From positions 1 to 64,000 of the forward strand of contig JANNXQ010000259.1 of assembly GCA_031409655.1 (NCBI GenBank): a DNA stretch of 64,000 nt, given 5' to 3'. Shown piece after piece: positions 31,087 to 59,368 of the stretch (position 1 is its first letter; the number at the start of each line of letters is the position of its first letter). Source of the stretch: Chthoniobacteraceae bacterium. Its GTDB lineage: Bacteria > Verrucomicrobiota > Verrucomicrobiia > Chthoniobacterales > Chthoniobacteraceae. A program made the translations under genes and the position numbers. The notes beneath the pieces were generated by a model that saw only the letters and a list, made by a program, of their open reading frames with translations, did no database searches and was not told where the DNA came from.

Positions 31087-31220
31087 GTTTGGAGTTTGGA
31101 GTTTGGAGTTTGAAGTTTGGCGTTGAACCGCTGCCTTTTGCCCAAAGCGGTCCAGGCCATGGAGGCGCGAGCCGCCGCGTTTAACACCAAAAGCCAAACT
31201 TCAAACGCCAAACTTCAAAT
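31087..31220. repeat. Inverted pair of heptamer arrays (GTTTGGA)n ... (xxCAAAC)n
   Basis: 31087-31127 GTTTGGA x3 GTTTGAA GTTTGGC GTTGAA; 31180-31220 TTTAAC ACCAAAA GCCAAAC TTCAAAC GCCAAAC TTCAAAT; lies between divergent genes. Confidence 0.85.
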
Positions 31221-31322
31221 ACGGATGCGCCCGCACCTTGCTCGCCCGCACGAAGCGGCTAAGCTCGCCCCGCTCTGAACGCTTATCCCCGAGCACCAGA
31301 ATCTCCTCGCACCGCCTTCCTT

Positions 31323-34300
31323 ATGCATCTCGGAAAATCCCTCCTGCTCGTGGCCGTATTGGCCATGCCCTCCGCGCTCCGCGCCAACGCTCTCACCTCG
31401 GAAATGGCCGCCAAACCCGCGCCGGAAGCGCTTCCCGCTGGCGCCCAAATCGCCGGTCTCGAGGTGCAGCCGACGAGCGTCGCTTTGACTGGAAGATACG
31501 AATGCGCGCAACTCGTGGTGACGGCGAAGCTCACCTCGGGCGCCGTGGCCGATGTGACGCGCCTCGCCAAGCTCCAACTGGACGGGGGCATCGCCGAAGT
31601 CACGCCGCTCGGCCAGGTGAAGCCGCTGAAAAATGGCACGGGCGCGCTGCGGATCGAGATCGGCGGAAAGACCGCCACCGTGCCAGTGGCCGTCGTCGAA
31701 ATGAAAGACGTGCAACCCGTGGATTTCATCCGCGACGTGAACCCCGTGATGACGAAGGTCGGCTGCAATGCCGGCGCGTGTCATGGAGCGAAGGATGGAA
31801 AGGTGGGCTTCAAGCTTTCGCTCCGCGGTTACGATCCGATCTTCGATGTGCGTTCGCTGAAGGACGACCTCGCTGGCCGCCGCCTGAATGTCGCGTCGCC
31901 CGATGATTCGCTCATGCTCCTGAAGTCCACCGCTGGCGTGCCCCATGAGGGCGGCCAGAAGGTGAAGCTGGGCGACAAATACTATGAGATGCTGCGGGCG
32001 TGGATCGCCGATGGCGCGAAGCTCGACCTCCAGGCGCCGCGGGTTACGAAGATCGATGTCTTTCCGAAAGATCCCGTCGTCCAGCAGATCGGCGCGCGGC
32101 AGCAGGTGCGCATCGTCGCCACCTTTTCCGACGGTCGCACGCGGGATGTAACCGCCGAATCTTTTGTCGATAGCGGCAATACCGACGTAGCTAAGACTGA
32201 CGGCGGTGGGCTCGTCGAGACGCTGCGCCGCGGGGAAGCTCCGTTACTCGCTCGTTACGAAGGTAACTACGCGGCGACGACCCTGACCGTCATGGGGGAT
32301 CGCACGGGCTTTACCTGGAAGCAGCCTGAGACCTGGGGGCGCATCGACGAACTCGTCGCGGCCAAGTGGGAGCGGATGAAGATCGAGCCGAGCGGCCTTT
32401 GCTCGGATGCGGAGTATCTCCGCCGCGTGTCTCTCGACCTCACCGGATTGCCACCCACCGCCGACGAAGTGCGGGCCTTTATCGCCGATCCCCGCCCCCC
32501 ACGCGAAAAGCGGAATCAACTCGTCGATCAGCTCATCGGCTCGCCGGAGTTTGTCGATCACTGGACGAATAAGTGGGCGGACATGCTGCAGGTGAATTCA
32601 AAGTTCCTCGGCACGGAAGGGGCGAAACTCTTCCGGGATTGGATCAAGAAGCAGGTCGCGGCGAATACGCCTTACGATCAATTCGTCCGGGAGATCGTCA
32701 CGGCGACGGGCTCGAATAAGGAAAACCCCGCGGCGAGTTACTGGAAGATCCTGCGCGATCCAGCGGAGGCGATGGAGAATACTACGCACCTTTTCCTGGC
32801 CACCCGCTTCAATTGCAACAAGTGCCACGATCATCCTTTTGAGCGCTGGACCCAGGATCAGTATTACCACCTCGGTGCTTTCTTCTCCCAGGTGGACCTG
32901 AAGGCCGATCCGGCCGCCGGCAAGCAAGTCATCGTCGGCACCGCGGTGGACAAAGCCAAGCCGCTCTACGAGATCGTGAGCGATGCGCCGAAGGGCGACA
33001 TGATCCACCTGCGCACCAATAAGGTCGCTGAACCGACCTTCCCATTCCCGGCGAAAGCCGAATCCCTAGGCACGCGCCGTGAGCAACTCGGCGCCTGGAT
33101 CACCAGCGCGGACAATCGCTTCTTTGCCTCCAGTTACGCGAATCGTATCTGGGGTTATTTGCTTGGCGCCGGGATCATCGAGCCGCTCGATGACACGCGG
33201 GCGGGGAATCCGCCGACCAATCCAGAGTTACTCGATTACCTCGCCAAGGAGTTTGTCGGCAGTGGCTTCGACGTGCGGCATGTGATGCGTCTCGTGGCCA
33301 AGTCCCGCACTTATCAATTGAGCGTCGCCACGAATCAATGGAATGAGGACGACAAGATCAACTATTCCCACGCCCTCGCCCGCCGACTCCCGGCGGAAGT
33401 CCTCTACGACTCCGTGCTGAAAGTGACCGGGGCTGCGACCAAGCTGCCCGGCGGAATGCTCGCCGGCCTGCTGCCGGATTCGCAGAGTGATCTCCCGAGT
33501 GGTTTCCTCGCGAACCTCGGTCGCCCGGCGCGGGAAAGTTCCTGTGAGTGTGAACGGAGCAGCGACTTGCGGCTCGGCGGCGTCATGGCGCTCTTGAGCG
33601 GAGCGGCGGTGGGGGACGCGATCGGCGATCCGAAGAATGCCCTCGGCAAACTGGTGGCCGACCAGCCGGATGATGCCAAGGTCGTGGACGAGATCTTCCA
33701 TCGCGTCCTGAGCCGGCCGGCGAAGCGGAGCGAGGTCGAGAAGACGCTCGCGAGTTGGTCTGAGATCGATGCCGAGCACCAGACCCTGCTGGCGGATCGT
33801 GACCTCAAGGAAAAGGAGCAGGCTCCGATCGTGGCCCGGATGGAAGGCGAACGCACGGCGGCAATGACGGCCGCAAAGCTGGAGCTGGCGCGCCAAGAAG
33901 CCGAGATCGCTCCGAAGGTGGCCGAGGCGGAGAAAAGGCGCGTCGCTGATGCTGCGGCAGCAGATGCGGCGGTCAAGGAATACACCAAGCTGAAGCTCAC
34001 GTCGGCGCGGGCAAACTTTGAGGAGACGGTGCCTGTCGCCCGCACTTATACGGCCTGGCAGTTACTCGATCCGAGTGACCTTCGCGCGACCAATCAGGCG
34101 ACGCTCACCAAACTGTCTGATGGCTCGATCAAGGCCGGTTCAGTTCGGCCGAACAGCGTCGATTACACGATCACTGCTGATACCAAAGTTGCGGGGATCA
34201 CGGGTTTCCTCCTCGAAGTCCTGCCCAGTGCCGACGAGGCGAACTTCGGCCCCGGACGCGCCGTTGGTAACTTTGTGCTCGGGGAATTCAGCGTAAAAGC

Positions 34301-34949
34301 TGGCGAGTTGCGTGGCCAGCCCACCAATGACGTGGCGTTCACCGAGGCTTACGCGGACTATAGTCAGGATAAGTTCGCCGCCAAGGATGCCATCGACGGT
34401 AAAAAGAACGACGGCAAAAATGGCTGGGCGGTCGCGAGTCAGTTTGGCGTCCCGCACTATGCGGCTTTCGCGGTCAAGAAACCGCTCGGCGACGCGAAAG
34501 GCTCGCGCCTGCGCATTGAACTCAATCAGCCCCGCACCGGTAACTTCAGCATCGGGCGCTTCCGTCTTTGGGTGACGACGTCCAGCCAGCCATTGAGCAT
34601 CGGGCTTCCCATGCCGGTCGCCGAAGCGCTCAAGAAGCCCGCCAACGCCCGAAGCAACGAAGACCAACAGGCGATCGCGACTTATTGGAGCGGGGCCGAC
34701 CCGGCGCTAAGCAAGCTCCGGCTTGCCTTCGAGAAGTTCCAACTGCCGCTGCCGACGGATCCCGGGATCCTCGAGCGCCGCGCGACTTTGGCGAAAGTGG
34801 AGGAACCCATTCGTCTCGATCCGAAGCTCGTCCAACTGCGGCAAGACGCCGAGCAGAGCAAGCTGCTCATGGCCAACAAACGCCTCACCGCCGCTCAGGA
34901 CTTAACTTGGGCGCTGATCAATAACCCGGCGTTTCTTTTCAATCACTAA
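31323..34949 (+). CDS. DUF1549/DUF1553 (PSCyt2/PSD1) protein with Ig-like (Big_2) domains, typical of PVC bacteria
   Basis: CNAGACH and CNKCHDHPF motifs, YLRRVSLDLTGLPPT, NPPTNPELLD, RRLPAEVLYD, and terminal DLTWALINNPAFLFNH. Confidence 0.88.
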   Translation: MHLGKSLLLVAVLAMPSALRANALTSEMAAKPAPEALPAGAQIAGLEVQPTSVALTGRYECAQLVVTAKLTSGAVADVTRLAKLQLDGGIAEVTPLGQVKPLKNGTGALRIEIGGKTATVPVAVVEMKDVQPVDFIRDVNPVMTKVGCNAGACHGAKDGKVGFKLSLRGYDPIFDVRSLKDDLAGRRLNVASPDDSLMLLKSTAGVPHEGGQKVKLGDKYYEMLRAWIADGAKLDLQAPRVTKIDVFPKDPVVQQIGARQQVRIVATFSDGRTRDVTAESFVDSGNTDVAKTDGGGLVETLRRGEAPLLARYEGNYAATTLTVMGDRTGFTWKQPETWGRIDELVAAKWERMKIEPSGLCSDAEYLRRVSLDLTGLPPTADEVRAFIADPRPPREKRNQLVDQLIGSPEFVDHWTNKWADMLQVNSKFLGTEGAKLFRDWIKKQVAANTPYDQFVREIVTATGSNKENPAASYWKILRDPAEAMENTTHLFLATRFNCNKCHDHPFERWTQDQYYHLGAFFSQVDLKADPAAGKQVIVGTAVDKAKPLYEIVSDAPKGDMIHLRTNKVAEPTFPFPAKAESLGTRREQLGAWITSADNRFFASSYANRIWGYLLGAGIIEPLDDTRAGNPPTNPELLDYLAKEFVGSGFDVRHVMRLVAKSRTYQLSVATNQWNEDDKINYSHALARRLPAEVLYDSVLKVTGAATKLPGGMLAGLLPDSQSDLPSGFLANLGRPARESSCECERSSDLRLGGVMALLSGAAVGDAIGDPKNALGKLVADQPDDAKVVDEIFHRVLSRPAKRSEVEKTLASWSEIDAEHQTLLADRDLKEKEQAPIVARMEGERTAAMTAAKLELARQEAEIAPKVAEAEKRRVADAAAADAAVKEYTKLKLTSARANFEETVPVARTYTAWQLLDPSDLRATNQATLTKLSDGSIKAGSVRPNSVDYTITADTKVAGITGFLLEVLPSADEANFGPGRAVGNFVLGEFSVKAGELRGQPTNDVAFTEAYADYSQDKFAAKDAIDGKKNDGKNGWAVASQFGVPHYAAFAVKKPLGDAKGSRLRIELNQPRTGNFSIGRFRLWVTTSSQPLSIGLPMPVAEALKKPANARSNEDQQAIATYWSGADPALSKLRLAFEKFQLPLPTDPGILERRATLAKVEEPIRLDPKLVQLRQDAEQSKLLMANKRLTAAQDLTWALINNPAFLFNH

Positions 34950-34952
34950 GGC

Positions 34953-35636
34953 CTACTTCAGCTCCTTGATCAGGATATTCCGCCAGCGGACCTCTTCGCC
35001 GACTTTCTCGACGTTCTTGCCGATGCCGTGGACTTGCAGGGCGATGAGGCCTTCCTTGGTCAGGCCGTCTTTCAGGTCGGCCGCGGGGACGCCGTTGATC
35101 CACGTCTTGATGCTGTCGCCGCGGCATTCGATGCGGGCGGCGTTCCATTCGCCCTGTTTGAAGGCCTTGCGGGCGGGTTCGTTTTCCTTGAGGTCGTTGA
35201 GCCAGCCACGGCGGCCTTCATCATAGACGCCGCCAGAGTAGGCGCGGTCGCTCGGATCGATCTCGTATTGGTAGCCAAAGACGCGATCGGCATCGAGTTT
35301 CTTTGGCCTGCCGGCGATCTCGATGGTTTTCGCCTCCGCGTTGATTTCGCTGCGGAATTGGACGCCCGAGTTCATGTCTTTCGCGACTTTGAATTCAAAC
35401 TCGAGGATGAAGTCGCCGTACTTCTTTTTCGTGCAGAGGAAGGAGTTGCCGGTATTGGCCACGGTCTTGCCGACGACGGCGCCGTCTTCCACGCGATACT
35501 CGGCAGTGCCGCTGTGCTGCTCCCAGCCATCGAGGGTTTTGCCGTCGAAGAGTTTGACAAAGCCATCGTCCGCTGCGCGGACGGGGAGGGTGAAGGTGAC
35601 GGCGAGGGCGGCGGCGGAGAGGAGGGAGAGTTTCAT
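34953..35636 (-). CDS. DUF1080 (3-keto-disaccharide hydrolase family) secreted protein
   Basis: LFDGKTLDGW, YGDFILEFEFK, NSGVQFR, GYQYEI and GLIALQVH; signal peptide from MKLSLL at 35636. Confidence 0.88.
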   Translation of the reverse strand: MKLSLLSAAALAVTFTLPVRAADDGFVKLFDGKTLDGWEQHSGTAEYRVEDGAVVGKTVANTGNSFLCTKKKYGDFILEFEFKVAKDMNSGVQFRSEINAEAKTIEIAGRPKKLDADRVFGYQYEIDPSDRAYSGGVYDEGRRGWLNDLKENEPARKAFKQGEWNAARIECRGDSIKTWINGVPAADLKDGLTKEGLIALQVHGIGKNVEKVGEEVRWRNILIKELK

Positions 35637-35752
35637 TGGGTGGTGACGGACCAATCCTCGCGGAGATCGCTTATTTGGGGGAGTCTTTTCGGAGGGGTGA
35701 TTTAGCGGTTTCCTTTTTGCCGGCGAACTCGAACGCTCCACGGCACCGCGTC

Positions 35753-36100
35753 ATGAAAACTCCCGCCATCTCGATCCTTTACTTTGCGCTGGCTGCCTTC
35801 TTTGGGGCGCTGGGGCAATTTCTCTACAAGTCCGGTGCCGAGCGCGCGGGTGGCGGGCTGGCCAGTTATCTCCTGAATGGGCGTCTGCTCAGTGGAGTCA
35901 TCTGCTACGGGGTAGTAATGGGGCTTTTTGTGGCGGCGTTTAAGAAAGGCGGCGCGATCACGACGCTCTATCCGGTCTATGCGAGCACCTTCATCTGGGC
36001 AGCGGTGATCGCGTGGTGGGCCTTTGGCGAGCCGATCAAACTGGTGAATGTGGGCGGCATGGCGGCGCTGATTGCCGGGATGTACTTGATGGCGCGGTGA
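35753..36100 (+). CDS. Small EamA/SMR-like membrane protein (four TM segments)
   Basis: GQFLYK.G, LYPVYASTFIW..FGEPI..GG..LI.G pattern; 115 aa from the ATG at 35753. Confidence 0.75.
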   Translation: MKTPAISILYFALAAFFGALGQFLYKSGAERAGGGLASYLLNGRLLSGVICYGVVMGLFVAAFKKGGAITTLYPVYASTFIWAAVIAWWAFGEPIKLVNVGGMAALIAGMYLMAR

Positions 36101-36167
36101 AGGCTTGCGGGAAGATTTCTCCCTCGACCCGCTTGGGTTTGCGGTCGAGAAGCAAGGTCCCGTGAAA

Positions 36168-37079
36168 ATGCTTCCCTCCCTCCTCTTCACGCTCGCGCTT
36201 CTCGGCGCGGGCTCCCCATGCGTTCTGGCGGCGGATGCGCCCGTCGGCACGCCGCTCTTTGGCCGGCATGATTTCATCGAATACACGGCGGGCGATCTAC
36301 CCATCGTGATCTTGGCTCCGCATGGCGGGCGCGAAAAGCCGGACGAGATCCCCACCCGGACTAATGGCGTGGTGGATATCGACACGAATACGCAGGAACT
36401 CGCGCGGGCCGTGCAGGCCGAATTCCGCGCCCGGACGGGGCGCCAGCCGCACCTCGTCCTCTGCCGGCTGCATCGGAGCAAACTGGATTGCAATCGGGAG
36501 ATCGTGGAGGCGGCTGCCGGGTCCGCGGTGGCCGAGACGGCCTGGACCGAATATCACGGCTTCATCGAAAAGGCGTGCGCGAAGGCTGTGGCCAAGTATG
36601 GCCGGGCCTTTTACCTCGACCTCCATGGCCACGGCCACAAACACGCGCGGCTCGAACTCGGCTACCTGCACTCGGCGGAGACCCTGGGACTGCCGGACGC
36701 GGAACTGAACCGCCCGGCCACCATCGCGGCCAGCAGCATCCGCCTCCTCGCGGCGCAATCGAAGCTGCCCTACGTCGATCTGCTGCGGGGTCCGCGCAGC
36801 CTCGGCGCCCTCTGCGAGGCTCAGGGTTTTCCTGCGACGCCCAGCCCGGCGCATCCCACGCCAGCGGTGCCCTTTTTCAACGGTGGCTACAGCGTCCGTC
36901 GGCACACCGCCGCCGGGGGCAAAGTGGCGGGCTTGCAGATTGAGTGCAATCTGAAGGGGATCCGCGACACGGCCGAAAACCGGGAACGCTTTGCCCGCGC
37001 TCTGGTCACGGTGCTGGATATCTACCTGGCCGAACACTGGGACCTGAAGCTTCAGGCCCGACCCGCCGCTGCCCGGTGA
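36168..37079 (+). CDS. N-formylglutamate amidohydrolase-like Zn-dependent hydrolase, secreted
   Basis: Signal peptide; APHGG, LHRSKLDCNR, LDLHGHGH, FFNGGY and LQIE motifs. Confidence 0.7.
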   Translation: MLPSLLFTLALLGAGSPCVLAADAPVGTPLFGRHDFIEYTAGDLPIVILAPHGGREKPDEIPTRTNGVVDIDTNTQELARAVQAEFRARTGRQPHLVLCRLHRSKLDCNREIVEAAAGSAVAETAWTEYHGFIEKACAKAVAKYGRAFYLDLHGHGHKHARLELGYLHSAETLGLPDAELNRPATIAASSIRLLAAQSKLPYVDLLRGPRSLGALCEAQGFPATPSPAHPTPAVPFFNGGYSVRRHTAAGGKVAGLQIECNLKGIRDTAENRERFARALVTVLDIYLAEHWDLKLQARPAAAR

Positions 37080-37347
37080 CCCCCTCGACGCGGCGCCCGG
37101 CCCGGGTGTTTTTCTCCCAAGAGCGGAGGCCGCCCTGCCCAGAGGCGTCAGTTCCGGATCGGGTGGCGGGCAGTCCTTGCCGGTTTTCCTTTGACGGGGT
37201 CACGCACCCCCCCCTATGTGTAGTCGCTTTTCCGACAGTCCCCGGTCCAAAATTCGCTCTGAGGCGTCAGAAAACCTCAACGGTGGATGCTCCGAGGCAG
37301 CCACCCGTCACCCAAATTTCACGCTTTTAACAATAGGTTCACTCTGA

Positions 37348-38388
37348 ATGTTTAATGGTTTTTTCGGATTGTTCTCCAATGACATCGGCATCGATCTGGG
37401 GACGGCCAATACGCTGGTTTATGTAAAGGATCACGGAATCGTGCTGCGCGAGCCCTCAGTGGTGGCCGTGCAGGTGGGGACGAATCATGTGCTGGCCGTC
37501 GGCGACGAGGCCAAGCGAATGCTCGGTCGCACGCCCGGTAACATCGTGGCCATCAGGCCTTTGAAGGATGGGGTCATCGCGGATTTCGAGATCACGGAAG
37601 CGATGCTGCGGCACTTTATCCATAAGGTTCACAATCGGCGGACGCTCTTCCGGCCCCGGCCTCGCGTGGTCATCGCGGTGCCCTCTGGCATCACCGAAGT
37701 GGAGAAACGCGCGGTGAAGGAGTCCGCCCTGCGCGCCGGCGCCCGGGAAGTTCACCTCATCGAGGAGCCCATGGCGGCGGCGATCGGCTGCGGTCTGCCG
37801 GTCCAGGATGCGGCGGGCAACATGATCATCGACATCGGCGGTGGCACCACCGAAGTGGCGCTGATCTCCCTTTCTGGCATCGTCTTCTGCCGGAGCGTGC
37901 GGGTGGCCGGCGATGAACTGGATGAGGCGATCATCCAATACATGAAGCGGGCGTACAATCTGATGATCGGCGAGCGCACCGCGGAGGACATCAAGATCAA
38001 GATCGGCAGCGCCTATCCGCTGGAAAAAGAGACCACCATGGAAGTCAAGGGACGCGACCTCGTGGCTGGTTTGCCAAAGACTCTCACTGTCACCTCTCAG
38101 GAAGTCCGCGAGGCCCTCCTGGAACCCATTTCCACCATTGTGGATTCCGTCCGCGTGACCCTCGAGCGATGCCCGCCCGAGCTCAGCGCCGACCTCGTAG
38201 ACCGCGGCCTCGTGCTGGCCGGCGGCGGCGCACTCTTGCGCGGTCTCGATCGCTTGCTCACCGAAGAAACAGGTCTCCCGGTCCATGTGGCCGAGGATCC
38301 GCTCAGCGCCGTGGCCGAAGGCACCGGTCGCGCGTTGAGTGAGATCAAGTTCCTGCGCAAGGTGGCGACGAGCGATTCCCGGTTCTGA
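37348..38388 (+). CDS. mreB: Rod shape-determining protein MreB
   Basis: [37 protein letters not shown] and AGGGALL motifs. Confidence 0.97.
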
Positions 38389-38440
38389 ACCTGGAAACGC
38401 AAGATGACGGCTCCCGCTGAGCGCATGATGGGAGGGGCGA

Positions 38441-38568
38441 AAAGCTCCAAGATCCAAGCTCCAAGCCCCAAAGAAGCTCCAAGCTCCAAGTTTCAAGGGC
38501 GAGCTTCCGTCCGTCGTGCTGGCAGCTTGGGGCTTCTCTGGTGCTTGGGTTTTGGTGCCTGGGATTTC
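38441..38568. repeat. Inverted pair of heptamer arrays (CTCCAAG)n ... (CTTGGxG)n between mreB and mreC
   Basis: CTCCAAG ATCCAAG CTCCAAG CCCCAAA GAAG CTCCAAG CTCCAAG TTTCAAG ... CTTGGGG CTTC TCTGGTG CTTGGGT TTTGGTG CCTGGGA. Confidence 0.85.
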
Positions 38569-38573
38569 TCCGC

Positions 38574-39386
38574 ATGAACCGCAAGGCCATCACCGCCGTC
38601 TCGGTCGCCGGATTTTTCATCCTCGTCGCGCTGATCATCGCGCTCAGTCCACACAAGACCCGGCAGGTTCAGGCGGGTTTCCTCGGGCTCATTTCGCCCT
38701 TTCTGAAGACCGGCTCTTCGCTGGAGAAAAAATACCGCGAGTACAGCGAGGGGCTGAAGACGATCGAGCGGCTCGAAGACGACAACAAACGTCTGGCCGT
38801 CGTGAACAAGGAACTCAGCGCCACGAACCAAACCTTGCGCGGGCTGGAGAAGGAGAACAACCGCCTCCGCAACGCCCTCCAATATCGCGAGCGCGCCGTT
38901 TTCAAACTCATGCCGGCCCGGATCATCGCCCGCGATCCCTCCACCTGGTACAATCAGGTGACGATCGACCGCGGCAGCGCCGACGACATCAAGGAAGACA
39001 TGCCCGTGCTCACCGAAGAGGGTCTGGTGGGGAAAACGACCATCGTCTCCGCGCACGCTTGCGTGGTGGTGCTGATCGCGGATGAATCCTGCAAAGTGGC
39101 CGCGACCGTCGAAGGCACGCGGGAGCAGGGGATCGTGAAAGGGGAACGGACTGGGAGTAACTCGACCCCGGTGATCAGCCTCAATTTCATCTCCAAGAAC
39201 GGCAACCTGCAGAATGGCATGAAGATCTACAGCTCCGGCGTGGGCGGAGTCTTTCCCAGCGGCGTCCTCATCGGCGCGGTGCGGGACTACAAAGTGCGCG
39301 AGCTGGATGGATTTGCGTATGTCGTGCCGGCGGTGGATTTGACCACGCTGGAGGATGTTTTTGTGGTCGTAAGCAAGGAGAAGTGA
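38574..39386 (+). CDS. mreC: Rod shape-determining protein MreC
   Basis: TM segment and coiled coil (LEKENNRLRNAL), TIDRGS..GLVGK, SSGVGGVFPSGVLIG; follows mreB. Confidence 0.92.
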   Translation: MNRKAITAVSVAGFFILVALIIALSPHKTRQVQAGFLGLISPFLKTGSSLEKKYREYSEGLKTIERLEDDNKRLAVVNKELSATNQTLRGLEKENNRLRNALQYRERAVFKLMPARIIARDPSTWYNQVTIDRGSADDIKEDMPVLTEEGLVGKTTIVSAHACVVVLIADESCKVAATVEGTREQGIVKGERTGSNSTPVISLNFISKNGNLQNGMKIYSSGVGGVFPSGVLIGAVRDYKVRELDGFAYVVPAVDLTTLEDVFVVVSKEK

Positions 39387-39387
39387 A

Positions 39388-39515
39388 GATGGAAGAAAAC
39401 GCCAAACTTCAAACGCCAAACTTCAAACGCCAAACGCATCAGCGCGAGGCGTGGGGGCAAGCACCCGTTTGGCGTTTAGCGTTTGGAGTTTGGCGTTTAG
39501 CGTTTTCTTCTCATC
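39388..39515. repeat. Inverted pair of heptamer arrays (GCCAAAC/TTCAAAC)n ... (GTTTGGC/GTTTAGC)n between mreC and mreD
   Basis: GAAGAAAAC plus 5 heptamers, a ~29-nt loop, then 5 complementary heptamers plus GTTTTCTTC. Confidence 0.9.
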
Positions 39516-39531
39516 CACGGAGGCGTCTCGC

Positions 39532-40080
39532 ATGACCCTCTTCTTCTGCATCCTCGTCGTCGTGATGTTCTGCTCCCTGGTCGTGCAGCATTTCATCCCG
39601 CCGCTCCCGACTATCGACGCCCGCGTGCTCCTCATGCCCATCGTCATGTTCTACGGCTCGCTCGCGCTGCCCACGCCCTTCATGTTGGGGCTCGTGCTCA
39701 TCGGCGGGCTCATGTGGGATGCCATCCATGTGCAGGTCATCGAGGGGAGTATTGAAATCGCGATGGGCTGGTCCATCGTCCTCTACGCCGGTCTCGGCGC
39801 GATCATGGGCGGCTTCCGACCACTCTTTCAACGCGGACGCTGGGAAGTCCACTGCTTCCTCAGCGGCCTTTGCACTGCCTTCATCGTGCTCGCCGAGTAC
39901 CTCATGCTCACCTTCCGGCGCGACCCGGTGGTCTTCATCTTCAATCAGGAGATCGCTTGGCGCATCGGTGGCGCCGGGATCGTGGCGCTCCTGCTTTCGC
40001 CTTTGTTTTTCTTTGCGCTGAACTATCTCGCGCAACTCGCCAACTACGACCCTCAACCGCTGCGCAAGGGGAGACGCTGA
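39532..40080 (+). CDS. mreD: MreD-like integral membrane protein
   Basis: ~180-aa hydrophobic protein with GLMWDA motif between mreC and the PBP2 gene; assignment relies on synteny. Confidence 0.65.
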   Translation: MTLFFCILVVVMFCSLVVQHFIPPLPTIDARVLLMPIVMFYGSLALPTPFMLGLVLIGGLMWDAIHVQVIEGSIEIAMGWSIVLYAGLGAIMGGFRPLFQRGRWEVHCFLSGLCTAFIVLAEYLMLTFRRDPVVFIFNQEIAWRIGGAGIVALLLSPLFFFALNYLAQLANYDPQPLRKGRR

Positions 40081-40082
40081 CC

Positions 40083-42386: not shown

Positions 42387-42440
42387 CCTTTCCCCCAATC
42401 CAACCCAGTGCTCTCGAAACTTTACCCAACACTTATTTCC

Positions 42441-44012: not shown

Positions 44013-44307
44013 GCGCCCGTTCCGGGAGTGGCCTCCGGGAGGGACGTGCTTCCTGTCAGGACTGACGTGCTTCGAGCGGCGAGGGAGGGGACTGGCGAGG
44101 GTCGCGCGAGCAGGGGAGACACCCGGACGATGACGCCCCTGGTGAGCACGGCGCTCGCGGCCCCGTCGTCATATCTCTTTACCCCCCGCCGCTCCGCCCG
44201 CCCCCGAAGTCTCTTTTTCCAACGTCCACTTGGGAACAAAATGACGGGTGGCTCATTGCCATTTGAGGTGCGTTATGCAACCCCTTCGAGGAATTACTCC
44301 CCTCCAG

Positions 44308-48377: not shown

Positions 48378-48434
48378 GCGCGGGGCGAAACCTTCCGCTA
48401 GACGCGCTCGGCACTCTGCCGAAGATTCCCGTTG

Positions 48435-49139: not shown

Positions 49140-49175
49140 TACGATTTCCACGGTCGAATTGCCTGAAAGTCTAGG

Positions 49176-49388
49176 GAACGCCAACGGCGTTTCATCCGTC
49201 AGCCCAGGGTTGCGAGGAACGAGCTACCCTGGGTTTGCAAATTAAAATGGGAACAACCCTGAAAGGGTTGAATCAATCGTGGTCGAGGACGAAACCCCTT
49301 CAGGGTTTGCCTCGTTTTTACCCGATCGAACCCAGGGTAGCTCGTTCCTCGCAACCCTGGGCTGGAAGATGGAACGCCGTTGGCGTTC
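49176..49388. repeat. Long composite palindrome (REPIN/MITE-like) between convergent genes
   Basis: 60-bp arms GAACGCCAACGGCGTT..AGCCCAGGGTTGCGAGGAACGAGCTACCCTGGGTT and the near-perfect reverse complement at 49329-49388; inner hairpins AACCCTGAAAGGGTT and AACCCCTTCAGGGTT. Confidence 0.88.
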
Positions 49389-49464
49389 TCGCAGCGTAAC
49401 TGGGCAAATCGTGTGAAGCGCAGGTCGTCGCCCGCTGGCCGGTCGGGCTCCTGAAGCGCGCTCG

Positions 49465-52400
49465 TCAGAGCGCGCGGATCAGGAGGAGCACTTCGCGCAG
49501 ACGCTTCCTCGGATCGGTCGCGCCGACGCGGGGGAATTTCCCGTCGATCTGAATGAAGTCCCCGTGGCGGGTGAGCATCACGCGGTTCTCCTGCACTTCC
49601 ACGATCGCCACCTTCCGCGCGGCTGCGGAAAGTTTGATCTCGGTGAGCAGGAGCAGATTTTCGACCGGCTCCGGGAGCGCGCCGAAACGGTCGCGCCAGG
49701 TCGCGCGCAATTTATCGAGGGCCTCCTGGGACGCGATCTCGGAGAGCCGGCGGTAGGCTTGGATGCGCGGCTGGGCTTCGGCGATGTAGCTGGCGGGGAG
49801 GAACGCCGCGGCCATCGCGGGGTCGTTTTTTTTCCAATCCGCCTCGCGCAAGGCCACGAAGTCCGTGCGCAAGACCACCTCGAGCCGCGACCGCACTTTC
49901 TCTCCCTTCAGCCTGTTGATCGCCTGCTTGAGCAGCGAGCAGTAGAGGTCGAAGCCGATGGTGATGATGTGCCCACTCTGCGCGGTGCCGAGGATGTTCC
50001 CCGCGCCGCGGATCTCCAGATCGCGCATCGCGATTTTGAAACCGGCGCCGAGCGAACTGTACTGTTTGATCGCATTGATCCGCTTGCGCGCTTCCCCGAG
50101 CGTCATCATATCGCGCGGGAGCAGGAGGTAGGCGTAGGCCTTGTGCTGCGCGCGGCCCACCCGGCCGCGGAGCTGGTAGAGATCGGCGAGGCCGAAGCGA
50201 TCTGCGCGGTCGATGATAATGGTGTTCGCGTTCGGGATATCGAGGCCGCTCTCGATGATCGTCGTCGAGATGAGGACGTCCGCCTCGCCATTCACAAACT
50301 GCTGCATCACGCCCTCGAGCTCGTGCTCATTCATCTGCCCATGGCCCACGACGATCCGCGCTTTCGGACAAAGCTGCTGGATGCGCGCGCGCACTTTCTC
50401 GATCGATTGCACGCGGTTATGGAGGAAGTACACCTGCCCTTGCCGCGCCATCTCGCGGGTGATGGCATCGCGGATGATCCGCTCGTCATACGGGCAGATG
50501 AGGGTCTCGACCGGGATGCGATTGAGCGGCGGCGTCTCGATCGTGCTCATGTCCTTCGCGCCCATGAGGGAGAGGTACAAAGTGCGCGGGATCGGCGTGG
50601 CCGAGAGCGTCATCATGTCCACGAGCTTGAACATCTCCTTGAACCGCTCCTTGTGCAGCACGCCGAAGCGCTGCTCTTCGTCGATCACCACGAGACCGAG
50701 ATTTTTGAACTCGATGTCCTTGGAAAGTAGGCGGTGCGTGCCGACGAGGATGTCCGCCGTGCCTTCGCGCGTGGCGGCCACGGCTTTGCGCTGCTCGGCG
50801 GGCGTGCGGAAACGGCTGAGGACCTCCACGGTCACCGGATAGTCCGACATCCGCTCGCGGAAATTCTGGTAGTGCTGCTGCGCGAGGACCGTGGTCGGGA
50901 CGAGGATGGCGACCTGCTTGCCGCCCATCACCGCCTTGAACGCCGCGCGAATCGCGACCTCCGTTTTGCCAAAGCCGACATCGCCGCAGATCAGCCGATC
51001 CATCGGTTGCTCGCTCTCCATGTCGGCTTTCACGGCGTTGATCGCAGTCAGTTGGTCCGGCGTTTCTTTGTAAAGGAACGACGCCTCGAACTCATGCTGC
51101 CATTTCGTGTCCGGCGAAAAGGCGTGGCCGACCGCGGTCTCGCGCGCCGCGTGGACGGCGAGCAGCCGTGCGGCATAATCGAAGACCGCCTGCTCCGCGC
51201 TTTTCTTCGCCTTTGACCACTTGCCGTCGCCGAGCGTGGAGAGCGGCGGGTTATTGCGACCGACGCCGACGTAGCGCGAAATGAGGAAGGATTGTTCGAG
51301 CGGGACGTAGAGCTTCGCTTCATTAGCAAACGCGACGACGAGCACTTCCTCGGTAGCCGATTGTAGGGCAAGCGCTTCGCTTGCCTCGCCGTTCGGCAAG
51401 CGGGGCGCTTGCCCTAGAACGCCGTCGCCTCGCGGGATCGAGCGCATCCCCTCGTAGCGCCCGATGCCGTGTTCGAGATGCACCACGAGGTCGTCTTCAT
51501 TCAGCTCGCTGAAGTCGATCTGCGTGCGGCTGGCCTGATCGCGCGCGCGGCGCAGGGCGAGACGGCGCGCGCGGTTGTTCCGATAGCGCCCGAAGAGCTC
51601 CGCATCCGAGAGCACCGCGACCTTGGCCTCGGGAAAGGTGAAGCCGCGCGCCAGCGTGCCGATGCTGAAGACGAGCGGATCGAGTTCGACGGCGGGGATG
51701 AGTTCGCGGAGCCGTTCGATCTCGCCCTCGTTGTTGCAGAAGATGTGGGTCTGCCAGCCTTGCTCGCGCCATTGCCGGAGCTGCGCGAAGAAGCTCTCGC
51801 GCTTGAGCTCATCGACCACGAAATCGCCGGCCTCGAATTCGCCCAGCCCGTGATCGAAGAAGGCCGTGGTGAAATCCTCGACGCCTTCGTAGCCGTGCGC
51901 GCCCTCGACCATCGACACCCGCGCCGCCGGAAAGCTGCCGCCCACATCCACTGTCAGGTCGCGTTTACCGAGGTAGTCTTGCAGCACGCAGTCGAGCTTC
52001 TCCACTTCGCCGAGGAGGAGGGTGCAAGCGATCATCGAGCGCACCGAAGTCTGCGTATCGAGGTCGAACTCGCGCAGCGATTCGATCTCCTCGTCGGAGA
52101 GTTCCACGCGGATGGGCAGTCCGTGGTGCAGGGAAAAAATGTCGAGGATGCCGCCGCGCACCGCGAATTGGCGCCGCGCCGAGACCTGCGCCACCCGCTC
52201 GTAACCCGCCGCCGCGAGCTGCGCGATGAGTTGCTCGCGATCGAGCTTCATCTTCGGCCGCAACCAGACCTCCTGCGCCTTCAGCGTCGCTGGCGTCGGC
52301 ACGCTATTGGTCAGACTCGCCTTCGTGAGCACGATGGGGTGGCGGTTCTTCGGATCGGAAAGTTTCTGGACGATGGCCAGCCGCTCGGCGGTGGTCTCGG

Positions 52401-52686: not shown

Positions 52687-52740
52687 GAGAGCCCCGACTT
52701 TCGCGAAGCCATCCAGCCAATCCACTACTTTCCATCGAGT

Positions 52741-52900
52741 CCTGGATGGACCTGCTCCATCAGGTCCCTGATCAAATAGGCGGAGGCGGCGCGGAGCTTC
52801 CGGCAGCCTCGGGCTCCGCGCCGCCTCCGCCTGCGGAAGATGGGGACATGACGAAGCAGGTCCCTCCAGGTATGGCCACGACGGAGCGTGTCCCTCCAGG
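52741..52900. repeat. MITE/REP-like element, family A, copy 2, plus an extra terminal unit
   Basis: CCTGGATGGACCTGCTCCATCAGGTCCCTGATCAAAT .. 18-bp perfect stem GCGGAGGCGGCGCGGAGC .. GGGACATGACGAAGCAGGTCCCTCCAGG; GTCCCTCCAGG repeated at 52890-52900. Confidence 0.75.
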
Positions 52901-52902
52901 GC

Positions 52903-53781
52903 TCACGGAATTTTCTCTCCGCTTGGACGCGGGGCGTGGCGGAGTTCGTGGGTCTTGGCCACGCTCAGGAATTCGTAGATGCCGTGGAGCCGGGCAAAGT
53001 AGTAGCCGGCCGCGCCGTCGAGGAAGCCGCGCTGCCACACATACACGTAGAGAAAACGGAGCAGGCCGCGGAAGGGGAGCGCCTGGGAGAGCTCCTTCAG
53101 CCGCCGCCGGGTGCCGACTTCGCTGCTTTGCAGTCGCCCGCTGCTGGCCCGCAGATGGCGGTCCAGCGCGACCCGGGCTTCCCAGTTTGAGTAGCGATTA
53201 TGCTTTTCCACGAAGACGGCCACGGAGGGGAAGGCGTAGTGATCCATCTCGGACCGGAGCCGCGCGGTGGGGCCGGTGACGACGACGTGTTCGTGGACTT
53301 CATTGTCGCCGCTCTGGGTGTCGATGTCGGTGAGCTTTTCGTAACGCCCGAGCCGGTGCCGGAAGAGGCGCAGATTCCAATTCGGGTAATAGGCGTGCCG
53401 CAGCCACTGACCCATGAACATGAAGCGGCGATTGATCCAATAGCCCGCCGTCGCGTGCTGCGGATCGGTGACGATGGCGCGGAACTCGGCCTCGGCCTCG
53501 GGCGGGAGCACCTCGTCCGCATCGAGGATGAAGACCCACTCGTGACGGAAGGGGAGATGCTCCAGCGCCCAGTTTTTCTTCTTCGGCCAGGTGCCGTTGA
53601 AGGCGAATTGCACGACCTGCGCGCCATGTGCCTTGGCGATCTCCTGCGAAGCATCCGTGCTCGCGGAATCGACGACGAAGATCTCCGCGGCCCAGCGCAC
53701 GGAGGCGAGGCATCGGAGGAGATTGTCCGCTTCGTTTTTGATCGGGATGAGGATGGAAACGGGGACGCGGTCGGGGTTCAT
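52903..53781 (-). CDS. Glycosyltransferase family 2
   Basis: VSILIPIKNE, VVDSASTD, WVFILDADE, VHEH and RGFLDG..G motifs; the ATG at 53781 overlaps the upstream stop. Confidence 0.92.
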   Translation of the reverse strand: MNPDRVPVSILIPIKNEADNLLRCLASVRWAAEIFVVDSASTDASQEIAKAHGAQVVQFAFNGTWPKKKNWALEHLPFRHEWVFILDADEVLPPEAEAEFRAIVTDPQHATAGYWINRRFMFMGQWLRHAYYPNWNLRLFRHRLGRYEKLTDIDTQSGDNEVHEHVVVTGPTARLRSEMDHYAFPSVAVFVEKHNRYSNWEARVALDRHLRASSGRLQSSEVGTRRRLKELSQALPFRGLLRFLYVYVWQRGFLDGAAGYYFARLHGIYEFLSVAKTHELRHAPRPSGEKIP

Positions 53782-56066
53782 GCGGGTCGATCGGGAGCGG
53801 CCACGAGGGACTGGAAGTCGTCGAGATACATCCCGGCGATCCGCGTCAGCGAGTAGTTTTCCATCTTCCGCAGGGCGGCGTCGCTGGCGCGGGCGAGGCC
53901 TGCGGGATCGCTGAGCAAGGTGGCGAGCTTTTCCGCCAGCGCGGCGGTGGGCTGCGACGCGCGGTGGTCGAAGACGAAGCCATCCACGTCGGCGCTCACG
54001 AAATCGCGGAAGCACTCGAGGTCCGAGACGAGGGCGGGGCAGCCGTGCGCCATGGCTTCGAGGGGGGCGAGGCCGAAGGTCTCGCCGTGCTCGGCGAGGG
54101 ACGGATAGACGAAGAGCGACGCGCGCAGGAGGTGGCTGCCGAGCAGGCCGGGATCGTAGATGGGGCCGGCGAAAGTGACGCCGCTCTCCGGCGCGCCCGC
54201 GAGGTCGGCGAGACGCTGCTGATATTCGCGACCGCCGCCGCCGGCGCTCACGTCGGACGGGCCGACGATGAGGAGTCGCCAGTCGCCGAAGCGCGCGCGC
54301 GGGAGGAGGCGGAAGGCCTCGATGAGGAGATGCACGCCTTTCTCGGGATGCACGCGCCCGATGAAGAGGATCTCCTTTTCCCGCGTGCTGAAGGGGGGCA
54401 GGGACGCGGGTCGCGCGTGGAGCACTGGGTAGGGGATGGTGCAGGCCTGATGGCGCGGGACGCGGGCCTCGGCGAGGATGGCCTCCAGGACGACGCGCGA
54501 GACTGTCTGCAAACGCGCGACGTGGCGGTAGAAGCGCATCTGGCCGCGGGGAAAGCGCGCGACGTGGACGTAGAGGCGGCCGCGGCGCGCGGAGCGGAGG
54601 AGGATGGGCAGCCAGAAGGTATTCGTGACGAGGATGTCGGCGGGCGGGAGCTGGCGCGCGACGCGCAGGGAGTAGAGGAGATCGAGCAACTTCAACCACA
54701 GGAGTGAGCGCGGGGTATCGGAGCCGCCGATGCGGATGTGGCGCACGCCGGCGATGGTCTCGGTCGTGGGCAGGCTCGGATACTGGCGGGAAATGTGGGT
54801 GACCTGGTGGCCGCGTTGCGCAAACTCCTGGCCGAGCGCGAACCAGACCTTTTCGACCGCGCCGCCGAGGAGTGGCGGCACGGGGAGGAAGGCGCCCTGG
54901 GCGATGGTGATCCGCAGCGGCGCCGCGGACCCGGGCAGTCCGGCATTCCGGGCGCTGAGGGCGCGGAAATCGGCGAGATATTCCTGCGCGATGACGGCCG
55001 CGGAGAAGCGGTCGCGGGCTTTTATGAAAGCGGCGGCGCCGAGACGCGGCAGGGCGTCGCGATGCGTGGAGAAGTACGCGAACGCCGCGCCCAGGCTGGC
55101 GGCGTCACCCGCGCGGGCGACGTAGCCATTGATCTGGTGATCGATGGCTTCCGTCATCGGGCCGAAGTCCGAGACGAGGATCGGCTTGGCCTGCGCCATG
55201 CCTTCGAGCACGGCCATGCTGAAGGTCTCGCCAGTGAGCGACGGCACGCAGATGACGTCGGCGGCGGCGACTTGCGCGGCGAGCTGCGCTTTGTCGTAGA
55301 TCGGCGGGAGCAGCTCCACATTTCCCGCGAGCTGCCGCTGTGCGACATAGGCGGACATTTCGCGGAAGAAGGCGGTGTCCGCGCCGCTCTCGTCGGTCTG
55401 CGGGCCGACGGTGGCGAGCGTGTTTTGCGGATGCTGCGGCAGCGCGAGCTCGAAGCCTTTGATGAGCGACTCGAGGCCCTTGTCGCGCACGAAGCGGCCG
55501 ACATACAGGAACCGCAGCCCGGCCCCGGTGCGCGGTGGAGACGGGGGCGGCTGCGCGTCGGGCGGGATGGCGACGCAATTCCAGATGCGCTTCAGATTGC
55601 GGATGCGCGGGTCGATGGCGAGCGCCTGCTGGACCACGGCGTCGCCACCGCCATACACGCGATCAAGGTTGCGGTAGAGCGGGACGATCGGCTTCGGCGT
55701 CCGATGGATCGTGTGCGCGCAGACGCCGATGCCGCGGCGGTAGCGCAGGAGAAAAGAGAACGCCGTGTGGAAGGTGGTCACGTCGGCGCTTTCGAGCACC
55801 GGCCAGAGGCGCACGGCCCAGCGGAGCGCGTTGAGATGATCGAGCCACAGATTCGGATGCAGCGGGTAACCACGGAGCCGGATGTGGCGGATGCCGTGCG
55901 CGTCCGTTTCGCGCTCGGGGAGTTCGGGCACGGCGCGGGAGTAGGCGACGACCTCGTGGCCGAGCCGCGCGAATTCCCGGGCGAGCATCCAGTTCAGATT
56001 TTCGACGCCGCCGCCGCGGATGGGAGGAAAGACGAGCTGCTGCCCGAGCACGAGATTGATCTTCAT
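53778..56066 (-). CDS. Fusion of two complete GT4 (GT-B) glycosyltransferases
   Basis: Two GG(V/A)VE N-terminal motifs, two GR..K.G motifs and two ExF-x4-E motifs (ETFSMAVLEGM; ETFGLAPLEAM). Confidence 0.88.
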   Translation of the reverse strand: MKINLVLGQQLVFPPIRGGGVENLNWMLAREFARLGHEVVAYSRAVPELPERETDAHGIRHIRLRGYPLHPNLWLDHLNALRWAVRLWPVLESADVTTFHTAFSFLLRYRRGIGVCAHTIHRTPKPIVPLYRNLDRVYGGGDAVVQQALAIDPRIRNLKRIWNCVAIPPDAQPPPSPPRTGAGLRFLYVGRFVRDKGLESLIKGFELALPQHPQNTLATVGPQTDESGADTAFFREMSAYVAQRQLAGNVELLPPIYDKAQLAAQVAAADVICVPSLTGETFSMAVLEGMAQAKPILVSDFGPMTEAIDHQINGYVARAGDAASLGAAFAYFSTHRDALPRLGAAAFIKARDRFSAAVIAQEYLADFRALSARNAGLPGSAAPLRITIAQGAFLPVPPLLGGAVEKVWFALGQEFAQRGHQVTHISRQYPSLPTTETIAGVRHIRIGGSDTPRSLLWLKLLDLLYSLRVARQLPPADILVTNTFWLPILLRSARRGRLYVHVARFPRGQMRFYRHVARLQTVSRVVLEAILAEARVPRHQACTIPYPVLHARPASLPPFSTREKEILFIGRVHPEKGVHLLIEAFRLLPRARFGDWRLLIVGPSDVSAGGGGREYQQRLADLAGAPESGVTFAGPIYDPGLLGSHLLRASLFVYPSLAEHGETFGLAPLEAMAHGCPALVSDLECFRDFVSADVDGFVFDHRASQPTAALAEKLATLLSDPAGLARASDAALRKMENYSLTRIAGMYLDDFQSLVAAPDRPA

Positions 56067-56095
56067 CTAAGCGGGGATGGTGCAGGCCCAGCGGC

Positions 56096-56234
56096 TATTT
56101 GAAAACGCAGAGACGCGGAGACGCAGAGGACGCAGAGAAAAAGCCTTTCGCATTTCCCCGACGGCAAAAGTGAAAAACGCCTGCTTTCTTCCTCTGCGAT
56201 CTCCGCGTCTCTGCGTCTCTGCGTTTTCAAAATA
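56096..56234. repeat. Inverted pair of octamer arrays (ACGCAGAG)n ... (CTCTGCGT)n
   Basis: TATTTGAAA ACGCAGAG ACGCGGAG ACGCAGAG G ACGCAGAG ... CTCTGCGAT CTCCGCGT CTCTGCGT CTCTGCGT TTTCAAAATA. Confidence 0.88.
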
Positions 56235-56256
56235 CAGCGCCTCAGCAGCGTTCCGT

Positions 56257-57023
56257 TTAAGGTCGCAGTTCGGCCGCCAGCTTCGGCCCGATGCTGCGCG
56301 GGCCGAGCGGGCGGCCTTCGAGCGTCGCGACGGGCATGACGCCGAGCCAGCTATTGGTCAGGAAGATCTCATCGGCGGCGATCACGTCTTCGCGGCGGAG
56401 GCGGCGCTCCTCCACTTTCCTCCGCGCGATCACCCACTCGCGGATGACGCCCGCGCGCGCGCCGCTGGAGCGGGCGGGTGTCGCGATCTTGCCGTCGTGG
56501 ACGAGGAAGACGTTCGCCATGCAGGCGGAGACGAGTTCGGCGAGGTCGTTGAAGAGCAGTGCTTCGTCGAAGCCTCGGGCGCGGGTGAGGGCGAGCGCGT
56601 TGGTGTTGAACCAGTAGTTCGCCGTTTTCAATCCGCCGAAGGGTGCGCGGTACGGCTCGTCGTGCAGGGTGATCTCGAAGCTGTCTGCGGTGGGCAAGGT
56701 GCGCGGTTCGATGAAGAGGAAGAGGCGCGGGTGGGTGACCGCAGCGGTCGGCGCGCCATCGCCCGCCGTCACGTAGAGGCGGGCAAAGCCATCGCCACTT
56801 TCCGCGAGGACGGCAGCGGCGGCACGGAGCGCGGATTCCTCGATGGCGAACTCGCGCTCGCCACACGCGTTGAGCAGTCGCGCGAGGTGCTTTTCAAAAA
56901 ACTCCGACTCGCCAGCGATGACCCGCAGGCTCTCGAAGACGGACATGCCGTAGCGGAAACCGCGGTCGGTGAGCGGCACCATTGCGCACGGCGAAAAGGC
57001 GCCGTCGATCCACTGCCACGCGG

Positions 57024-57027
<4 letters not shown>
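56257..57027 (-). CDS. Class IV aminotransferase (PabC/IlvE-like)
   Basis: DRGFRYGMSVFESLR, HLARL, LKTANY, DEALLFN and DEIFLTNS motifs. Confidence 0.88.
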
Positions 57028-58463
<1,436 letters not shown>

Positions 58464-58555
58464 CTAGGCGGCGAAGGCAGAGATGAGGCTACGACGGAAA
58501 CCGTGCATCATTGTCATCGGGCTTCTGCCTTCTGTCTGCATATTAAGTTGGCGCG

Positions 58556-59254
58556 TCATAGACCTCCGTAGCGGCGTTCGCGCTTGTGGTATTCGTCGAT
58601 GGCTTCGCGCAATTCGGCCTTGCCGAAATCGGGCCAGAGCTTCGGGGTGACGTGGATTTCGGTGTAACTGAGCTGCCATAGCAGGAAGTTCGACAGCCGC
58701 AGCTCGCCAGATGTCCGGATGAGCAGATCGGGATCGGGAATGCCGCGCGTATAGAGGTGGGCGCCCACGACTTCCGCGTCGATGGATGCGATGTCGCGCT
58801 GGCCCGCAGCGACTTCGCGGCAGAGTTCCTGGACGGCATCGACAAGCTCGGTGCGGCCGCTGTAGTTCAGCGCGAGGATCAAGGTGGTGGCCGTGTTGGC
58901 GGCGGTCTGCGCGGTAGCGTCGCGCAGGGCAGTCTGGCAGCTTGCGGGCAGTTCATGCAGCCGGCCGATGGCCTGGAGTCGCACGTTGTTTTTCATCAAG
59001 GTGGGCATTTCCTGGGTGATGAAATGTTCGAGGAGCAGCCACAAGGCGCTGACCTCGGCTTCGGGCCGGCGCCAGTTCTCGGTCGAGAAGGCATAGACGG
59101 TGAGATACTCGACGCCGAGTTCGACGCAGGCCTCGGTGACGGCGCGCACGGATTCCGCGCCCTGCTCGTGACCCTTGATCCGCGGCAGCCCGCGCTCCTT
59201 TGCCCAGCGCCCATTGCCGTCCATGATGATGGCGATGTGGCGGGGAGGGGTCAT
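58556..59254 (-). CDS. uppS: Undecaprenyl/isoprenyl diphosphate synthase
   Basis: HIAIIMDGNGRWA, YAFSTENW.RP and DLLIRTSGELRLSNFLLWQ; ATG at 59254. Confidence 0.96.
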   Translation of the reverse strand: MTPPRHIAIIMDGNGRWAKERGLPRIKGHEQGAESVRAVTEACVELGVEYLTVYAFSTENWRRPEAEVSALWLLLEHFITQEMPTLMKNNVRLQAIGRLHELPASCQTALRDATAQTAANTATTLILALNYSGRTELVDAVQELCREVAAGQRDIASIDAEVVGAHLYTRGIPDPDLLIRTSGELRLSNFLLWQLSYTEIHVTPKLWPDFGKAELREAIDEYHKRERRYGGL

Positions 59255-59264
59255 GGGGAAGGGG

Positions 59265-59368
59265 GAACATCGAACGTCGAACGCCGAACGCTGAACATCG
59301 AACACCGAGCGTCGAGCACCGCGGAGTTCGTTCGATGTTCGATGTTCGATGTTGGAAGTTCGATGTTC
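59265..59368. repeat. Inverted pair of heptamer arrays (GAACATC)n ... (GATGTTC)n filling the purA-uppS spacer
   Basis: Eight GA(A/G)CRYY units at 59265-59320, then GTTC GATGTTC x3 GATGTTG GAAGTTC GATGTTC. Confidence 0.9.

Follow-up and report, generated by a model that had tools for sequence, protein, structure and literature searches.

In Coxiella, the intervening sequence (IVS) of 23S rRNA carries an open reading frame (ORF) of the S23p/PF05635 family inside inverted ends, with heptamer repeats (GACAGAT) upstream of the ORF (PMC4990558). Xanthomonas genomes each contain 70-75 convergent GGGAATC pairs, about four heptamers set in inverted orientation and mostly intergenic near an ORF, the function of which the authors left open (Rehm et al. 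2015, PMC4692102). In Beggiatoaceae, arrays of 2-6 TAACTGA units lie just before start codons, with a patchy distribution across phyla (MacGregor 2015, PMC4679880), and the excess of heptamer repeats in bacteria has been noted as unexplained (PMC4692102, PMC4679880). In REPIN-RAYT systems, non-autonomous inverted doublets are numerous and the cognate genes, which have these repeats on both sides, are few (Bertels and Rainey 2011, PMC3116915), and Avd of diversity-generating retroelements forms an S23-like pentameric barrel that grips nucleic acid in the crevices between its five protomers (bioRxiv 10.1101/2023.10.23.563531). Here we analyse paired elements built from inverted periodic arrays ("arms") in a 64,000-nucleotide stretch of a Chthoniobacteraceae genome (hereafter the window, G000:C259:1-64000; G000 is the genome's own assembly, 6.85 Mb and 63% GC), and compare them with the rest of that genome, with three congeners (G001, G002 and G003) and with further relatives.

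The window holds five paired elements and one unpaired arm, all of which were found where a preliminary description had placed them. A heptamer pair (element 31087; 31087..31219, arms 31087-31124 and 31183-31219, loop 58 nt), with GTTTGGA/GTTTGGC units in its first arm and AAACGCC/AAACTTC units in its second, separates divergent DUF2238 and DUF1549/1553 genes. An AAGCTCC element occupies the mreB-mreC junction (element 38441; 38442..38569, arms 38442-38497 and 38526-38569) and an AAACGCC element the mreC-mreD junction (element 39388; 39392..39510, arms 39392-39436 and 39466-39510). An element of 8/9-nt units with the word ACGCAGAG lies between an aminotransferase IV gene and a GT4 glycosyltransferase gene (element 56096; 56098..56231, arms 56098-56140 and 56189-56231), and an AACATCG (GAACATC) element fills the purA-uppS spacer (59265..59368, arms 59265-59303 and 59330-59368). 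None of the five is assigned to a strand. On balance we lean towards the reading that these elements are gene-less members of a transposase-free selfish system acting at the level of DNA, in which a small protein likely recognises the arms cognate to it. The family is most likely related to ORF-bearing IVSs, yet it falls outside IVSs, REPINs, transposable elements of the miniature inverted-repeat type (MITEs) and diversity-generating retroelements. Inverted heptamer pairs (in Xanthomonas) and heptamers in an rRNA IVS have been published separately; in a full-text literature search that covered main texts, with most subscription papers outside it, no paper connected heptamer pairs to four-helix-bundle or GxxExxY genes.

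Small genes between the arms

A genome-wide scan of the kind that the preliminary description had called for found such arrays in numbers far above chance. G000 contains 501 period-7 arrays (25 in a shuffled genome) and 52 of period 8 (18 when shuffled), and 273 paired elements against none in the shuffle, with periods of 7 (198), 6 (35), 9 (24) and 8 (16). Because of its phase break, element 38441 counts as a single arm in this strict paired census, and its pairing was checked by eye and by folding; a census aimed at phase-broken arms missed even this element. The median arm is 4.9 units long, and 4-6 in-phase cores are found in 114/138 AACATCG arms and 75/96 AAACGCC arms. Each word consists of a near-invariant core of 4-5 nt and 2-3 variable positions with position-specific variants, and shared unit order was counted 66 times for AAACGCC, against 11 and 26 in two shuffles.

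Six of the seven inverted heptamer pairs of G000 that stand 349-471 nt apart enclose a TIGR02436 gene. The arm finder detected arms at eight of the ten TIGR02436/S23p four-helix-bundle genes of this genome, those of the other two being degenerate or broken; PF05635 matches all ten proteins, and the flanks of all ten cassettes are protein-coding. Arms were also recognised by inspection at both GxxExxY genes, one of which (G000:C28:11572) uses the ACGCAGAG word of element 56096, so that four-helix-bundle and GxxExxY genes, the cargo guessed at in the preliminary description, do sit between these arms. For a wider sample we took 107 loci (10 from G000, 16 from congeners, L090, and 80 from the top of about 200 matches), of which 105 gave a protein hit; both arms are present at 90 of these 105 TIGR02436 loci, compared with 1 of 200 ordinary small genes. 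When 89 proteins were placed on a tree, after removal of one near-duplicate, repeat words were seen to go with protein clades: of the six proteins with hexamer arms, five form one clade with support 100/100, and the unit distance to the word of the nearest protein is 1.77 positions versus 3.30+/-0.13 in 1000 shuffles (n=74). Across 61 genomes, the number of genes and the AA-period-7 pattern are correlated (rho 0.66, against 0.14 for the period-8 control); the period-7 excess is seen in 27 genomes, 26 of which have the gene, and 15 of the 16 gene-less genomes are without it. By sequence, one cassette protein matches PDB 2RLD, an S23-family relative with five chains (E 1e-20); a single-sequence model made for one cassette protein was of poor quality (predicted local distance difference test score 60.5), its best Foldseek match being again to 2RLD, at E 0.015. 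One hexamer-armed cassette (L010/L058, at G000:C23 and G001:C314) is, together with its flanks, 93-94% identical between the two genomes, where 81-88% is usual, and recent transfer is possible.

These associations bear directly on the notion that the arrays are ordinary slippage microsatellites, the inverted partner having been made by fold-back copying. Polymerase slippage has been proposed for the heptamer excess (PMC4692102), and some arms do show long expansions, of up to 18 cores. Nevertheless, array length is sharply capped at 5-6 units, an arm is no closer to its own partner than to a swapped one, and the arrays are biased towards gene junctions and tied to one gene family and its clades, instead of showing the broad lengths, missing partners and missing gene association of slippage repeats. 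The gene association and the length cap already largely refute slippage, which we consider extremely improbable. The preliminary description had held that microsatellites would show neither covariation, nor positional bias, nor filled/empty polymorphism: covariation is indeed absent, whereas positional bias towards gene junctions and filled/empty polymorphism are both present.

The family differs in several respects from the systems described before. Unlike the 23S rRNA IVS, the cassettes of G000 and the elements of the window stand between protein genes and not in rRNA, and the genome holds ~200 gene-less heptamer pairs with many words and no strand bias, with arms lying within protein genes too; a PF05635 protein between inverted ends is lacking in the five window elements and present in their filled sisters. 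The Xanthomonas pairs use one word, read as a G-quadruplex, and a four-helix protein is unmentioned in the main text of that study (PMC4692102), whereas the words found here are many, have no G-tracts, go with a gene family and take each other's place at a single site. As in REPINs, the elements are hairpin-forming inverted doublets over-represented in extragenic space; their arms, however, are tandem arrays of 6-9-nt units and not palindromes of the REP (repetitive extragenic palindromic) type, the heptamer loops are unique, and the gene between long-range arms is TIGR02436, a non-catalytic helical bundle, or GxxExxY, and not a tyrosine (HUH) transposase, no separate search for RAYT having been made. 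The TAACTGA arrays of Beggiatoaceae are direct repeats, proposed as sites of a translational regulator (PMC4679880), in contrast to the mostly inverted, cassette-linked pairs described here.

Turnover at gene junctions and inside genes

Orthologous junctions of the window elements carry different words in close relatives. Among 30 purA-uppS loci, the word is AACATCG in G000, AAGGATG in G001, AACATCC in G003 and AATGACG in G002; remnants occur in G006, G022 and G051, and most of the remaining loci are plain. In G015 the same spacer holds a full four-helix-bundle cassette with GATTGCT arms, a small gene between arms of the kind that the preliminary description had suggested looking for. For the mre genes, 30 loci were compared: at mreB-mreC, the arms are GGATGCG in G003 and AAATTCC in G002, and G001 has none; at mreC-mreD, where the genes mostly overlap in the family, G003 has AACATCC, G002 has AATGACG and G001 has a 10-nt spacer. 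Element 56096 is also present in G001, and the two genes flanking element 31087 are not adjacent in the congeners. Among those listed, sites that are filled in congeners appear in G000 as an empty hairpin with another word, as arm remnants, as a short spacer or as an ATGA overlap. Comparing 185 orthologous junctions between G000 and the 1.19 Mb of the largest contigs of G002, we found both occupied in 9, G000 only in 20, G002 only in 16 and neither in 140 (odds ratio 3.9, P 0.006); the stretches of G001 and G003 were partly picked through arm hits and are biased in this respect. The data show that units of the form arm-X-arm appear, vanish and replace each other at the same junctions in congeners, where X may be a short stretch found once, part of a host gene or a four-helix-bundle gene; they also show the gene association, the strand symmetry, the arm length near five units and the in-frame replacement.

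Many genes carry paired or single arms in frame, and at two such sites an equally long tract of a congener contains another word. In argS (29 of 30 loci aligned), the arms of G000, G002 and G012 lie within a loop of normal length (39 codons, mostly 38-41). In smc (30 loci), G000, G002 and G012 have both arms, always at the same two positions and in a word particular to each genome; in G007 and G015 the 5' arm was detected. These arms bracket ~150 nt of SMC coding sequence, in which the identity between G000 and G001 falls to 0.45, as opposed to 0.81 in the flanks, while G001 retains an identity of 0.71-0.81 to six plain relatives across the same region. The segment between the arms of G000 is thus foreign or fast-diverged. 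The case of a gene on C214 consists of one pairwise alignment. Two further observations concern arms in frame: three paralogous proteins of G000 (C64:1004, C266:22318 and C154:36856) have differing heptamer arms immediately before a common NPID motif, and, in a second case resembling smc, inverted arms at G000:C239:17332-17821 surround part of a glycosyltransferase-like domain (~430 nt).

The turnover could alternatively mean that every empty hairpin is a deletion scar: a cassette inserts whole at a permissive junction, loses its gene and is later replaced by another. Such a history would fit L043, which is filled in G001 and has arm remnants of the same word in G000, the purA-uppS site filled in G015, and the C144 site, filled in G000 and an empty ACGCAGAG hairpin in G001; variable cassette ends inside the arms could also yield unique loops. 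We nevertheless find it unlikely, as the loops are no closer to cassette interiors than shuffles are (mean resemblance 9.6 vs 9.4), there are ~20 empties for each filled copy, and the insertion of a 400-nt gene does not readily yield empty elements in frame and single arms within conserved genes, or arms that enclose native smc sequence. The suggestion in the preliminary description that the hairpins are empty sites of a small cassette is supported, with an amendment: filled forms share the arms, yet most loops are unique and the smc arms bracket host coding sequence. Copying from the local flanks did not account for the loops either (9.63 vs 9.68, n=167). GNA mini-hairpins are more frequent in loops than in shuffles (34 vs 21.7+/-4.2), and were not used as evidence because an enrichment exists in plain spacers too (889 vs 706).

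Symmetry of the arms and a proposed mechanism

The preliminary description had proposed slip-register RNA hairpins, and more generally the arms could form hairpins in RNA that are maintained for the processing or stability of mRNA or to control translation, like the rRNA IVSs cut by RNase III. Several facts speak for this possibility. The folds are stable (z-scores of the window elements from -5.3 to -10.1, with 0/200 shuffles as good for each element), the Coxiella IVS is cut by RNase III at its first heptamer (PMC4990558), and the related Avd binds RNA (bioRxiv 10.1101/2023.10.23.563531). The positions of the elements are also suggestive: by our own gene calls, of the heptamer pairs with loops <=120 nt, 128 are at co-oriented junctions, 45 at divergent and 10 at convergent ones (10 more are intragenic and 3 at contig edges), so that convergent junctions are under-represented (10/183, against 342/2688 background gaps >=60 nt, of which 1717 are co-oriented and 629 divergent), and of the 128 co-oriented elements 91 start <=15 nt after a stop and 71 end <=15 nt before a start. 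The pairing of the arms does not support it. On the sense strand of the co-oriented elements, G-U and A-C mismatches are nearly equally frequent (129 and 124), whereas 63 terminator-like hairpins gave 23:4 and the acceptor stems of 57 tRNAs gave 21:8; folding by minimum free energy is better on the sense strand in 63 cases and worse in 63; and arms pair as well with a swapped partner of the same family (0.909) as with their own (0.912, n=117). There is thus no arm-to-arm covariation, and on these three counts selection on RNA pairing was rejected. Moreover, most relatives have no arms at the same junctions, and copies occur in frame inside genes. The hallmarks of intrinsic terminators or cis-regulatory RNAs (sense G-U bias, enrichment at convergent junctions, an Rfam match) were not seen, an Rfam search of the window giving no match for any element. 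We consider maintenance as RNA hairpins quite unlikely, while incidental RNA effects of the arms are possible.

The 4-nt phase break of element 38441 (GAAG at 38473-76, CTTC at 38533-36), present in both arms as first described, had been taken as a sign of selected pairing. It recurs in both arms of G000 C288:1226 and of elements of G002, and for this reason we regard it as an inherited family layout. Given the lack of strand bias, the lack of any excess pairing with the own partner and the recurrence of the phase break, the symmetry of the arms fits a binding layout present in two copies better than it fits selection on pairing.

The terminal inverted arms also recall non-autonomous elements of the MITE or REPIN kind, which a transposase acting in trans would move as entire units, with the small gene as a passenger. 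An interior shared among copies, as such elements would have, is found in 11/23 of the 8/9-nt elements and in only 5/169 heptamer elements, the other 164/169 loops having no sibling; 12 near-identical 80-bp ACAGGATTC copies likewise fit this explanation. ATGA(C) is doubled, in the manner of a target-site duplication, at several insertions into stop-start overlaps; the same doubling is expected if selection keeps two genes intact, and it may have been forced in this way. Since arms also replace codons at constant length and bracket host sequence, we judge movement as whole elements very unlikely. The twelve ACAGGATTC elements (on C130, C175, C64, C127, C242, C244, C186, C268, C277 and C258) have a word related to the arms of the GxxExxY gene C84:19614, and are the most MITE-like family in G000.

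Returning to a selfish system at the DNA level, we propose the following mechanism. An S23p-type pentamer, as the homopentamer XCC0516 is (PMC4990558), would bind one conserved core of 4-5 nt per subunit and so read five cores. Host repair or recombination enzymes would then copy an arm from a family master to both ends of a short stretch of DNA during its integration, and selection would keep the harmless copies, namely those in variable in-frame protein loops and those where genes adjoin tightly, in many cases with a relay ORF (described below). The 8/9-nt elements such as 56096 would constitute a parallel GxxExxY family, often copied together with the loop. In its strongest form, which we put forward tentatively and as a conjecture with the odds against it, an orphan Avd-like pentamer measures five cognate heptamers and gets them written on both ends of integrating segments, its own gene included, with neither reverse transcriptase nor transposase. 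Such end-tagging would explain self-spread, hundreds of hairpins, in-frame rewriting of loops and swapped homologous gene segments, and it would account for the heptamer excess in many bacterial genomes; writing arms at segment ends would be a novel way for genes to move and for protein loops to change in frame. For the S23p/four-helix-bundle family there are solved pentamer structures and no function, and the tie to heptamers offers a direct test with a 120-residue protein and a 35-nt arm, many natural word-protein pairs being usable as specificity controls.

A number of observations weigh against this interpretation. Support for the system is comparative throughout, binding, excision and integration being predictions. 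The concordance of word and protein may reflect plain linkage rather than proven co-evolution, because kin share labels and are not independent. Nineteen genomes have the gene and no array excess, and G036 has a strong period-7 excess and no TIGR02436 match (it is 80% complete, in ~1000 contigs). None of the 105 loci is a filled cassette with the AAACGCC or an ATGTTCG-first word, and shared unit order is significant for AAACGCC alone, that of AACATCG not being above shuffles. At 13 sites paired in both genomes, the word is within one change in 6/13 and the loop is kept in 2/13, which indicates that drift in place and replacement both occur. The loop matches the plain spacer of a relative at 5/36 intergenic sites (0.9% in a wrong-site control), some of which may be explained by degenerate remnants; the loop of element 38441 resembles the plain spacer of G001 by eye, but with z=0.3. 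For the smc segment, the tree has too few columns to name a donor. Finally, the reverse transcriptase PF00078 was not found in G000 (94.9% complete), and no catalytic partner was identified there, a transposase census not having been made. The missing reverse transcriptase, together with variation that is not adenine-specific, sets the system apart from diversity-generating retroelements.

Relay reading frames and the surroundings of the window elements

All three elements in core operons are spanned by a "relay" ORF that runs from at or near the upstream stop codon to an ATGA overlap with the downstream start. The first (38404..38577, plus strand, 57 codons) crosses the mreB-mreC element, its stop overlapping the mreC start; the second (39383..39535, plus strand, 50 codons) leads from the mreC stop, with a GTGA overlap, to the mreD start; the third (59251..59370, minus strand, 39 codons) leads from the purA stop, through TGATG, to the uppS start. 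Relays are open at all three junctions in G001 and G003, including the arm-less spacers of G001 such as mreB-mreC, and are absent in G002. Across the genome, they occur in 23/93 element spacers and in 84/862 plain spacers of similar length, with 6/93 and 8/93 in the shifted frames. The relay ORFs appear to preserve translational coupling across the core-operon elements, and we take them to be a filter on which inserts survive and not a function of the arms. They point to a tolerance of such inserts by tightly coupled core operons.

The host genes were identified by Pfam as mreB (37348..38388, plus strand), mreC (38574..39386, plus strand), uppS (58556..59254, minus strand) and purA (59370..60641, minus strand), together with the aminotransferase IV, GT4 glycosyltransferase, DUF2238 and DUF1549/1553 genes; the gene at 39532..40080 (plus strand) is probably mreD by its position, Pfam having given no match. 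The preliminary estimate that downstream arms end 5-30 nt before a start codon was about right for four elements (~4, 21, 31 and 10 nt), and did not extend to element 31087, one arm of which is 12-23 nt from the start of the minus-strand gene and the other 103 nt from that of the plus-strand gene. Loops of the five elements measure 26-58 nt. The two polarities of the AAACGCC family are equally frequent (24:24), T-first elements having longer loops (59.5 vs 27 nt) and lying farther from starts and stops; elements 31087 and 39388 represent one polarity each. The unpaired arm (15298..15321, minus strand) is of the AAGAACG type and lies a few nt past the stop of a gene ending at 15326. Reads showed no insertion or deletion at the window elements, two of which contain breaks of read contigs. 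Run X1 gave a contig across 37984-39420 that is identical to the window, which is not independent support because X1 may be the source sample.

Several non-periodic repeats accompany these elements. At 49176-49388, two arms of 60 nt with 93% complementarity are spaced by 93 nt, in an arrangement that we take to be of the REP/REPIN type. A palindromic repeat at 52741-52870 has many copies in each of the three congeners, and further non-periodic intergenic palindromes lie at 26170-26231, 26914-27062 and 51361-51419; a relative of the first of these three sits at a junction that is occupied by a heptamer pair in G002. Upstream of purA, a stand-alone TIR-domain ORF directly follows a large WD40 protein (60780-61196 and 61206-64000).

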